DNA from: an uncultured Candidatus Rokubacteria bacterium | GTDB taxonomy: Bacteria > Methylomirabilota > Methylomirabilia > Rokubacteriales > DASRDR01 | Length of the DNA stretch: 64,000 bases | Direction of reading: 5' to 3' | Assembly: GCA_963708025.1 (NCBI GenBank) | Contig: CAVPSB010000014.1 | Span: forward strand, 384,001 to 448,000 | Part shown: piece after piece, positions 49,326 through 52,405 of the stretch | Numbering within the stretch: position 1 is the first letter of the stretch | Layout of the letters: every line of letters starts with the position of its first letter | The notes under the pieces: generated by a model | What the model was told of the DNA's origin: nothing | The model's database searches: none | What the model saw: only the letters and a program-made list of their open reading frames with translations | Program-made: the position numbers and the translations under genes

Positions 49326-49862
49326 TCATTTCCGGGCGGGCACCGCCTCGTAGAGCCGGAAGCTGTCGGCACGGGCGACGATGCGGAAGCCGGCCAGCTT
49401 CCACCACTTGCGCTCCTCGCCCGTCAGCGGGCGCCGTCGCGGCTGCTTCCGCCGGTCGGCGGGGCTCAGCTTGGCGCTGTCGCGGCGCCGCTCGGCCTGT
49501 CGCCGGTCGAGGATCACCTCCACGCTTCGCATGGCCTGGAAGCGCCGGCGCAGGAACTCGTAGAGGTCCGGCTCGTCCGACCGCACCACGATCATCCAGC
49601 GGGTCGGGGCGCCCCGGCCCGGCTTGCCGTCACCGGAGGACCGGGGCCGCCGCGACGGGGAGTGGCGGTCGAGCCATCGCGCGGCCGCGCCGGTCTCGAT
49701 GCGGAGGCCGCCGGACCAGGGACGGGTCTGGGTCGCCTGGAGCGGGACCAGCCAGACGGCGAGCGGGAAGGTCTTGTTGCGCCCACAGGCCGGGCACTGC
49801 TCGCTGTCGGTGACGATGTCGCAATCGAGACAGATCCGGGCGTCGTCCACCGAGATGATCAT
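49326..49862 (-). CDS. hypothetical protein: zinc ribbon + VILDRR/ERR domain
   Basis: CLDC..CPAC; LYEFLRRRF..VEVILDRRQAERRR; GAGGA SD. Confidence 0.7.
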   Translation of the reverse strand: MIISVDDARICLDCDIVTDSEQCPACGRNKTFPLAVWLVPLQATQTRPWSGGLRIETGAAARWLDRHSPSRRPRSSGDGKPGRGAPTRWMIVVRSDEPDLYEFLRRRFQAMRSVEVILDRRQAERRRDSAKLSPADRRKQPRRRPLTGEERKWWKLAGFRIVARADSFRLYEAVPARK

Positions 49863-49972
49863 GGCCGTCCTCGTCGCGGATGGTTCTTGTCGCAGATGAT
49901 CGCGGGACGACTCTATCGCGGGTCGCGGGGTTCGCGCGCAGGAATTCCGGCGTCGATGAAACGCGCGAAAGT

Positions 49973-51412
49973 TTAGAGAAGATTCGGTGAGGTCAGGGCC
50001 AACTGGCCCTGGGTGGGCTCCGCTCAGCAGAACCAGGGCTCGGTGAGGCGGGGCGCGCGCGGGCGATCGGCCCGGGGGAGCGTGGGCGCGGGCGCCGGGG
50101 TCAGGCCGGCGGCCTCGTCCGCGAAGCAGCGGATCGCGTGGAACGTCACCGCCGGATCCTCGCCGCGAGCGGTGGCGTCGCCGACGCCGGCCGCCACGGC
50201 GCCCTGGAGCGCCTCCATCCGCCGGTCGGGGTGGGTCCAGCGGTAGTAGAAGTCGGCCTCGACCAGCTCGCCCAGGTGGGGCCGCATCGCCGCGGTCTCG
50301 ACAAGCAGCGAGCCCGGCGGGACCAGGAGCCGGATCGAGTACTGGACGGGATCCACCTGATCGATCAGTCCCTCGCGCTCCACGAAGTCCAGCATCTCCC
50401 GGTAGTCCGCCAGCGTCGTCCACGGGGTGAAGGCGACCCAGGTGGGTCGGAGCGCGATCCCGGCGGCCCGGACGGCGGCGAGCGCCTCGACCACGTCCGC
50501 CCGCGTGTGCCCCTTGTCGAGGTGGGCGAGGACCGTGTCGCTCAGCGACTCGACGGCCGAGACGACGAACAGGCACCCGAGCGCCGCCAGCTCGGCCAGG
50601 TGCCGGCGCTGGCGGAGCAGGTGCTCGACCTTGGCGGTGAAGTCGAAGCTGACCGACGGGAACTCCGCGTGGAGCGCCCGGGCCACTCCGAGGGCGTGGC
50701 CGGGCCCGTTCAGGAAGTCGGGGTCGCCGAAGGTGACGTGGGTCGCGCCGGCCTCCACGAGCTGCCGGACGTCCGCCAGCACGACGTCCCGCGGGACGAC
50801 GAAGAAGCGGCCGTCGTAGACGGGCGGGATCGGGCAGTGGCGGCAGCGATGCTTGCAGCCGCGGCTCGCCTCCACGTACCCGGCCAGCTCCAGGCGGCCG
50901 TCCCGCTCGAGGTGGGCGTACTTCTCGAGGGACGGCAGGGCTTTCCGGCTCGGGACCGGGAACGCGACCTTCGCGAGGTGCGGGCGGGCGGGAGCCCCAG
51001 TCCGGCTCACCCCGGGGACTGAGGGATGAGGGCCCGCCTCGAGCGCGCGGCACAGCTCGACCAGGAGCGGCTCGGCCTCGCCGCCGATCACCGAGTCGCC
51101 CCCGTGGGCCAGGAGCCAGTCGGCGTTGAGGCTCGCGTAGAGGCCGTAGAAGACGACGTGACAGGCCGGGTTGATCGCGCGCACCTGGGCGGCCACCGAC
51201 ACGCCGAGGCGCAGCGCGGTGTGCATCGGCACCGAGATGGCCACGAGGCGGGCGCGGGCGACCCGCTCGGGGTCGAAGGGCTCGACGGCGACGTCCAGCA
51301 CGGCCGGGGCGTAGCCGTGGGCCTCCAGGAACGCCGCAGGCCAGGCGACCGCGAGCGGCTGGTGGCCCAGCTCGTAGCAGGCGACGAGGAGCACCGCCCC
51401 GGGGTCTTTCAG
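49973..51412 (-). CDS. CUAEP-tail B12-binding-type radical SAM selenoprotein (UGA=Sec at 50024-50026)
   Basis: CYELGHQP, SRGCKHRCRHC (CxxxCxxC); read-through gives EPWFC-U-AEPTQGQLALTSPNLL*; start CTG 51412 or GTG 51394. Confidence 0.85.
49994..50011 (-). promoter_or_regulatory. bacterial SECIS-like hairpin
   Basis: CAGGGCC-AGTT-GGCCCTG perfect 7-bp stem, 12 nt after the UGA, with G in the apical loop. Confidence 0.75.
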
Positions 51413-51530
51413 TTCGGGACCTCCTGCCCACCCGATTCTTCGACGGCCTTCGGCCTTTGGCCCCCCTCCCCGATCGTCCGACGGCCTTCGGCCTTTGGCC
51501 GGGGGGAGGGGGGGGCCGGAGAGTCCGATT
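51413..51530. repeat. family A repeat, copy 4 (two GGCCTTCGGCC modules)
   Basis: TTCGGGACCTCCTGCCCACC..GGGGGGAGGGGGGGGCCGGAGAGTCCGATT. Confidence 0.8.
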
Positions 51531-51550
51531 GCGCCAGATGCATCACGCAG

Positions 51551-52405
51551 TCAGTGTACGCCAGCCAGGCGGCGGAAGGCCGGCGGAGCGGGGCTCGTGA
51601 AGGTGACCGCGATGCCTGTCTCCGGGTGGAGGAAGCCGAGCTGGGTTGCGTGGAGGCAGAGCCGGCGAAGGGGGTTGCGCGTGCTCCCGTGGAGGCGGTC
51701 CCCGACGATCGGGTGACCGAGCTCGGCGAGCTGGACCCGGAGCTGGTGGCGCCGGCCGGTCCCCAGGCGGAGCTCGAGAAGAGTCGCGTCGGACCCTCGC
51801 GCCGCCACGCGGTAGTGCGTGATGGCCGCCCGACCCGCCTCGCGGCCCGGCCGGACCCGGAGCCCGCGATCCTGGACCAGCCGGCTCGTCAGTGTGCCGG
51901 CGTCGTCGCGGACTCGCCCCTCGACGACCGCGACGTAGAGCCGCCGGGCGCTCCGCTGCTCGAACTGCGCCTGCAGGTGACGCTTGGCCCCCGGCGTGGT
52001 GGCGAAGACAAGGAGCCCCGAGGTCTCCCGGTCGAGACGGTGGACGACGAACGGGCGGCGCGGCGGTCGCCGCGTCGCCAGGTACTCCCAGAGGAGATGG
52101 TTGACCGTGCGCTCCCGCTCGCGCTCGGTCGCGATGGTGAGGAGGCCGGGCGGCTTGTCGACGACGAGGAAGACGTCGTCCTCGTGCACGCGTCCCAGCT
52201 CGGGCGGGAAGGTGGTCTTCGCCGGCGGACCGAGGTCGAGCGCGTCCACGATCCGGACCGGGGCCCGGGGATCGCGCACGACGGCGCCGTTGACGCGGAC
52301 GCGGCCCTCGGCGAGCCACGTCTTGAGGCGGCGCGCCGAGGAGTCGGGAAACTCGCCCCGGAGCCGGGCCAGCAGGGGAGCCGTCGCCGGGGCGGGGCCC
52401 GTCAC
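51551..52405 (-). CDS. RluA-family pseudouridine synthase with S4-like N-terminus
   Basis: VDKPPGL, VHRLDRETSGL, GRAAITHY, TGRRHQLRV, GDRLHG, LCLHA. Confidence 0.92.
   Translation of the reverse strand: MTGPAPATAPLLARLRGEFPDSSARRLKTWLAEGRVRVNGAVVRDPRAPVRIVDALDLGPPAKTTFPPELGRVHEDDVFLVVDKPPGLLTIATERERERTVNHLLWEYLATRRPPRRPFVVHRLDRETSGLLVFATTPGAKRHLQAQFEQRSARRLYVAVVEGRVRDDAGTLTSRLVQDRGLRVRPGREAGRAAITHYRVAARGSDATLLELRLGTGRRHQLRVQLAELGHPIVGDRLHGSTRNPLRRLCLHATQLGFLHPETGIAVTFTSPAPPAFRRLAGVH

Follow-up and report, generated by a model that had tools for sequence, protein, structure and literature searches.

The window analysed here is a stretch of 64,000 nt from an uncultured Candidatus Rokubacteria bacterium (assembly GCA_963708025.1, contig CAVPSB010000014.1, positions 384,001 to 448,000). 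Its minus strand carries, from 51412 or 51394 down to 49973, a gene whose product, when an in-frame TGA is read as selenocysteine (Sec, U), is predicted to be a radical S-adenosylmethionine (SAM) enzyme with a C-terminal Cys-Sec pair. The end of the reading frame is ...PRLTEPWF-C-U-AEPTQGQLALTSPNLL followed by TAA, and ordinary gene callers end the protein at the TGA, 17 residues early. The initial annotation of this DNA had taken the frame to continue beyond ..EPWFC-TGA as far as a TAA and had placed a perfect hairpin, of the kind known as a selenocysteine insertion sequence (SECIS), 12 nt past the UGA; both observations were confirmed, the tail being AEPTQGQLALTSPNLL-TAA and the hairpin having 7 pairs and a 4-nt loop. 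The features of the gene, in the direction of transcription, are the following.

49973..51412, minus strand: whole gene, predicted CUAEP-tail radical SAM selenoprotein (translation with TGA = U; NF040546 match)
51420..51425, minus strand: Shine-Dalgarno-like AGGAGG, 7 nt 5' of the CTG (from the sequence)
51410..51412, minus strand: candidate start codon CTG (alternative, GTG 51394-51392)
51053..51391, minus strand: B12-binding-like domain, residues 8-120 (Pfam PF02310, E 4.3e-10)
50453..50872, minus strand: radical SAM core, residues 181-320 (Pfam PF04055 Radical_SAM, E 2.6e-14)
50857-50834, minus strand: [4Fe-4S] cluster motif CKHRCRHC, of the CxxxCxxC type, residues 186-193
50024..50029, minus strand: codons of the predicted Cys-Sec dipeptide, TGC 50029-50027 and TGA 50026-50024 (read from the sequence)
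49994..50011, minus strand: putative bacterial SECIS-type hairpin, with a perfect 7-bp stem and an AGUU loop, beginning 12 nt after the UGA
49976..50023, minus strand: post-Sec tail, AEPTQGQLALTSPNLL (translation; TAA stop at 49975-49973)

The product would have 479 residues if the CTG at 51412 is the start and 473 if the GTG at 51394 is used, and both codons are regarded as candidate starts. The start at 51412, as it had been given in the initial annotation, turned out to be a CTG; it lies in exact register with the ATG or GTG starts of close Rokubacteria homologues (M-K/R-E-P-G-A-I-L-L-...-A-C-Y-E) and is preceded by the AGGAGG, whereas the mechanical list of open reading frames (ORFs, translation table 11) has the gene begin at GTG 51394 instead and end at the TGA.

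Family membership and architecture

The translated product matches the NCBIfam model NF040546, "CUAEP/CCAEP-tail radical SAM (seleno)protein", over model positions 1-467 of 468 with 696 bits (E 2.2e-209), compared with a curated cut-off of 500 bits for this equivalog model. A six-frame search of the genome with the same model gave 689.5 bits, with one TGA inside the match. Besides this score, the protein has the other hallmarks of NF040546, namely the C-(U/C)-A-E-P motif and a CxxxCxxC core behind a B12-binding-like domain; between the radical SAM core and the conserved tail PRLTEPWF-C-U-AEPT lies a variable Pro/Arg-rich linker. The detection of PF04055, PF02310 and the motif CKHRCRHC agrees with the previous description of the gene as encoding a radical SAM enzyme, and the NF040546 score with its placement in the CUAEP/CCAEP-tail family. 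The second-best NCBIfam family is ArsL (NF040542), with 329.3 bits over positions 1-406 of 423, and every NCBIfam family other than these two gives 53 bits or less.

The finding is in this sense already known: the protein is an ordinary member of a family that has been curated under precisely such a tail and that has been mentioned in print. The one relevant paper found to name the family, the Haft 2022 preprint (10.1101/2022.07.06.499078), calls it uncharacterised, in agreement with the earlier remark that it was known without an assigned reaction, and places it in a small set of selenoproteins that contain a CU motif. The same preprint lists HgcA, the SAO-locus proteins, some MerT proteins and KCU-star as having the vicinal Cys-Sec pair; their folds are regarded as unrelated, and they are likened to the CUAEP protein by the motif alone.

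A second, weaker match to NF040546 was observed in one genome of the same phylum (G094:C14:59465-60676; 314 bits over positions 1-398, with no TGA), possibly corresponding to a tail-less or ArsL-like paralogue.

Predicted recoding of the TGA

Bacterial selenoprotein genes are characterised by a SECIS-type stem-loop located shortly 3' of the UGA. In the gene of the window, CAGGGCC (50011-50005) faces GGCCCUG (50000-49994) across the loop AGUU (50004-50001), and a 71-nt region around this hairpin folds with -26.8 kcal/mol (z = -2.61; 4 of 200 shuffled sequences fold equally well). A GC-rich hairpin straight behind a stop codon also has the look of a terminator, and the table 11 ORF does stop at the TGA. 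One may thus ask whether translation truly stops at the TGA, giving a protein that ends at ...EPWFC, with the hairpin acting as a terminator or an mRNA-stabilising element. However, no U-run is found after the hairpin, and the NF040546 model spans the tail up to its position 467 of 468.

Further evidence on this point comes from the homologues. A scan with one genome per species yielded 551 relatives, of which the best 80 were taken; together with the window they make 81 genes. Three of these loci end before the tail, so that the tail counts rest on 77 loci and the window, 78 genes in all. The codon at the Sec position is TGA in 70 of them, TGC in six and TGT in two. The eight Cys forms, which according to the titles of their records are found in Nitrospirota (4), Bacteroidota/Ignavibacteriales (2), Blastocatellia (1) and Gemmatimonadales (1), read through this position, and the frame that follows is kept as protein (AEPT..Q) in Sec and Cys forms alike, the GQLAL codons doubling as hairpin. 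Two expectations of the initial annotation, that an alignment would have Cys opposite the UGA and a conserved AEP, are thus borne out in 8 of the 78 genes and in both forms, respectively.

The same-phylum sample consisted of 151 genomes, the source genome (G000) included, of which 114 have an NF040546 match at E <= 1e-60; among those of high quality the figure is 76 of 98. Each match reaching model position 466 or 467 contains exactly one TGA, and the six matches without TGA all end at or before position 455. These tallies include the unpublished G111 (one match, one TGA) and G068 (one match, ending at 431), on neither of which any conclusion depends. The family is unusually dominated by Sec forms, and it constitutes a near-core gene of its phylum.

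The hairpin was analysed sequence by sequence, by a survey of stems and by codon resampling. A stem of at least 5 bp that begins 11-14 nt after the UGA is present in 67 of the 68 TGA genes surveyed, with lengths of 5 bp (10 genes), 6 bp (21), 7 bp (32) and 8 bp (4) and with AGUU, AGUUC, AGUUG or GUU as loops. Among these genes the hairpin occurs in 44 different versions, and every depth of the stem shows alternative pairs; an example of compensation is the change from GGC-CAG-TTG-GCC to GGT-CAG-TTG-GAC, synonymous on the 5' side and Ala-to-Asp on the 3' side. When synonymous codons were resampled from each gene's own usage, the mean stem was 4.89 bp, compared with 6.56 observed (n = 68), although only 16 of the 68 genes were individually extreme. 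No such excess was detected in the Cys forms, with 4.12 observed and 4.11 resampled (n = 8). The mean free energy is -17.3 kcal/mol in the TGA forms (n = 67) and -8.3 in the Cys forms (n = 8), a contrast that is partly compositional because the Cys forms include low-GC genomes (0.27-0.65 GC).

Conservation of this region was also evident in metagenomes, which were compared as contigs rather than raw reads, the best run holding 0.40 of the sampled words. In contigs from four soil or bog runs, the summed depth over an island at 49989-50051 is 240-2059, versus 0-18 at 49800-49988; this high depth over about 60 nt arises because the homologues of many organisms match there with at least 90% identity. 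The tail and the SECIS element are conserved as nucleotides far more than the remaining gene. In the contigs of four runs from four studies, which belong to relatives and are not source reads, no alternative letter was found at the TGA (50024-50026).

Sec machinery is encoded in the genome, as had been presumed. Genes selA (597.8 bits) and selB (371.9 bits) and a tRNA-Sec gene (76.2 bits) lie within about 5 kb on contig C32, and selD (398.4 bits) is on contig C7, all four above their cut-offs. Moreover, selA tracks the TGA form, being present in 5 of 5 Sec-form genomes versus 1 of 5 Cys-form genomes among those tested, whose completeness is not given. The best selD match (L011, G000:C7:91381-92304) itself holds one in-frame TGA and probably encodes a Sec-containing SelD. 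A second selD-like match (L012, G000:C23:88505-89419; 270 bits) lies within an open frame of 833 residues, perhaps a fusion protein.

At the level of sequence, everything that is asked of a bacterial selenoprotein gene is found in this one. We consider it almost certain that it is an intact gene for a Sec-containing member of NF040546, in which the UGA would be recoded by means of SelB, tRNA-Sec and the hairpin. A true stop at the TGA is very unlikely, to the point of being hardly credible, given that the frame beyond it is kept as protein, that eight homologues have a Cys codon there, and that the Sec machinery is present in the genome and its selA gene follows the TGA form.

Some observations nevertheless weigh against the assignment. 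Sec insertion is something that we infer, and in the literature found no 75Se labelling or mass spectrometry is reported for the CUAEP family. In addition, covariation was counted column by column, as paired cells, after building a covariance model (R1) and realigning the sequences to it (A2). This rendered 70.2% of cells paired versus 67.7 +/- 0.9 in shuffled data (1 of 500 reached the observed value), but 75.8% when the partners were slid by +1. The count is not used as support because hairpins with 4-nt and 5-nt loops stand in different registers, which neither MAFFT nor the covariance model separated; in addition, the A2 alignment includes three further matches that are weak (L035 10423-10496 on the minus strand, L063, and L065 12855-12900). 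It is the per-sequence analyses, which are tailored to the hairpin, that were relied on.

Relation to ArsL and possible function

The closest characterised family, and the sole close one, is ArsL, a radical SAM protein of arsinothricin biosynthesis and a sister of the CUAEP family. By cleaving SAM, ArsL generates methylthioadenosine together with a 3-amino-3-carboxypropyl radical that it adds to As(III), in a reconstituted reaction mix without cobalamin; its C-terminal CCxxC binds As(III), and when the RCCLKC tail is removed SAM cleavage is intact and product formation is abolished (10.1101/2024.02.01.577332). What the two families have in common is a B12-binding-like domain, a core with CxxxCxxC and, in the same place behind a variable linker, a short, conserved C-terminal tail rich in chalcogens, and the CUAEP protein matches the ArsL model across the whole core, diverging only in the tail. 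The tail is FCUAEPT in the gene of the window and RCCLKC in ArsL, the match to the ArsL model stopping short of the motif, at position 406 of 423. The partners of the CUAEP protein in other genomes are Nfu, IscA and an ATP-grasp ligase, whereas those of ArsL are ArsM and ArsQ. On score, tail and context the gene falls outside ArsL, yet by analogy its product may work like ArsL, and the sisterhood of the two families offers a concrete assay.

The initial annotation had proposed that the Cys-Sec tail serves as a redox or metal/metalloid-binding arm, an idea to which the arsenite-binding CCxxC tail of ArsL lends plausibility. The predicted Sec at the TGA is probably the residue that does the chemistry. 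We put forward, tentatively and as a possibility that falls short of even chances, an ArsL-like mechanism operating on another soft atom bound to the tail. A flexible C-terminal arm would hold the soft substrate atom on the Cys-Sec pair, candidates being a metalloid, a chalcogen or a species of the persulfide/selenide type, and would bring it to the cluster-SAM site; there, a radical derived from SAM would form a carbon-heteroatom bond. In most other genomes, the amino-acid-like product could then be taken up by an adjacent ATP-grasp enzyme of the L-amino-acid-ligase type, with the cluster coming from an Nfu/IscA carrier that is likewise encoded alongside; in the source genome, the gene of the enzyme lies apart from the Nfu/ATP-grasp pair.

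Alternatively, the protein could belong to the canonical 5'-deoxyadenosyl radical enzymes and perhaps depend on cobalamin, as class B radical SAM methylases do, with some small molecule or protein as its target and with a Cys-Sec pair that delivers or resolves electrons rather than holding a substrate. A vicinal Cys-Sec pair is a classic type of redox centre. This reading is consistent with the B12-binding Pfam domain, with weak matches to class B enzymes (HpnR, the PhpK family and MCR glutamine C-methyltransferase) and with the nearest solved structure by sequence, AprD4 (PDB 6fd2, E 2.4e-11), a radical SAM diol dehydratase that forms 5'-deoxyadenosyl radicals and that was matched over residues 111-368 with the same architecture of B12-binding-like and radical SAM domains. 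AprD4 is, however, a distant relative without the Cys-Sec tail and has a different reaction; a sequence search of the PDB found, besides AprD4, just one further radical SAM protein, also distant, and no solved ArsL structure. The class B matches amount to 35-53 bits versus 329 bits for ArsL, which shares the N-terminal domain and whose reaction was reconstituted without cobalamin. A canonical 5'-deoxyadenosyl enzyme appears unlikely.

The neighbours of the gene in other genomes provide information of a different kind. ORFs lying up to 6 kb from each of the 78 genes were clustered, and the clusters were named by Pfam and NCBIfam, with the following result.

ATP-grasp ligase (LAL_C2; sub-threshold BacD and DdaF matches): 32/78 loci, in at least eight labelled groups, on either side, on either strand and in several gene orders
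Nfu-type carrier: 29/78 loci; directly 3', within 600 nt and on the same strand, in 25/66 loci that have 1.5 kb of flank or more
IscA/ErpA-type carrier: 14/78 loci; directly 5' in 12/70 loci with sufficient flank
DUF169: 11/78 loci
DnaK: 10/78 loci
Small ArsC-family protein: 8/78 loci
CDGSH protein: 7/78 loci

These links support two readings, since they fit a small-molecule pathway, made up of the enzyme, a ligase and a dedicated cluster donor, as well as a role in iron-sulfur metabolism. In the latter case, the protein would take part in the biogenesis or repair of iron-sulfur clusters, and the Cys-Sec tail would carry a persulfide or selenide, or would act as a ligand to a cluster on its way between A-type carriers and Nfu. 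The adjacency of Nfu and IscA genes in other loci points in this direction, together with the presence of CDGSH, DnaK and ClpB genes nearby in some lineages and with the near-core status of the gene in the phylum. In L064 (1951-10947), from a low-GC metagenome-assembled genome of Ignavibacteriales, a Cys form has iscA and nfu on its two sides and is part of a suf run on a single strand that comprises sufC, sufBD, sufS, sufU, sufT, iscA, the radical SAM gene, nfu, a dehydrogenase gene and the ATP-grasp gene. On the other hand, a carrier gene beside that of a cluster-dependent enzyme is also expected if the carrier merely matures that enzyme, and a role in cluster assembly leaves the link to the ATP-grasp ligase unexplained. 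We know of no step in iron-sulfur cluster assembly that requires a radical SAM enzyme. Altogether such a role seems improbable.

The ArsL-like mechanism is our preferred guess. The recurrent neighbours Nfu, IscA and ATP-grasp ligase offer a concrete set of partners. A bolder proposal, which we hold to be doubtful, can also be made. The CUAEP family would be a second group of ArsL-type aminocarboxypropyl-radical enzymes, in which the Cys-Sec arm captures a soft atom other than arsenic (e.g. selenium, sulfur, antimony or tellurium). The product would be a new carbon-heteroatom amino acid, which the ATP-grasp ligase would convert to a dipeptide-like metabolite. Nearly all Rokubacteria/Methylomirabilota would have an enzyme of this family, which would also be frequent in soil Acidobacteriota, Planctomycetota and Nitrospinota. 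If true, this would imply a widespread and so far unrecognised organo-chalcogen or organo-metalloid pathway.

Several points count against an ArsL-like function. The 329.3 bits obtained with the ArsL model are below its cut-off of 450, and the protein of the window has two chalcogen ligands in its tail where ArsL uses three Cys. No ars gene or methyltransferase gene appeared among the six neighbouring ORFs scanned, the wider window not having been scanned for ars genes. No neighbour cluster of the other loci is represented within 8 kb of the gene in the window, which shares no conserved neighbours with them; what is said of the module is therefore drawn from other genomes. Finally, near-core status (76 of the 98 high-quality genomes) and occasional placement in a SUF operon are more in keeping with a housekeeping function than with a specialised natural product. 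The best overall explanation, in which the identity of the gene is almost certain and the mechanism tentative, is one that we hold with good confidence.

Surroundings of the gene and related loci

In the window the gene is flanked upstream by a pseudouridine synthase gene and downstream by a Cys-rich ORF of 178 residues without family; the six neighbouring ORFs that were scanned encode a quinone-oxidoreductase-like dehydrogenase, an FKBP isomerase, the pseudouridine synthase, a major facilitator superfamily transporter and two proteins without family. This neighbourhood is unlike that of most NF040546 members, the Nfu and ATP-grasp genes being on another contig. There they adjoin each other, behind an amidohydrolase gene (G000:C2:100907-102476, L111-L113).

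The downstream ORF (49326-49862, minus strand) starts with a CxxC...CxxC pattern (MIISVDDARICLDCD...CPAC). It had no Pfam or NCBIfam match, and no cluster partner within 6 kb of the radical SAM gene in the 77 tailed loci.

The 5' leader of the gene contains two exact 22-nt direct copies (CGACGGCCTTCGGCCTTTGGCC, plus strand) at 51441-51462 and 51479-51500, bordered by runs of C and of G that are complementary to each other. Folding of the leader (51405-51555, minus strand) gave nothing distinctive (z = -1.39), and a search of the entire window with Rfam at gathering thresholds gave no matches.

The small ArsC-family ORF of the neighbour survey is convergent with the radical SAM gene, at about 55 nt, in L097 (9435-9665, minus strand), and occupies the corresponding place in seven other loci as well. 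It matches just positions 42-107 of NF041106, "ArsC family (seleno)protein", and probably represents another selenoprotein, whose ORF breaks off at a UGA of its own.

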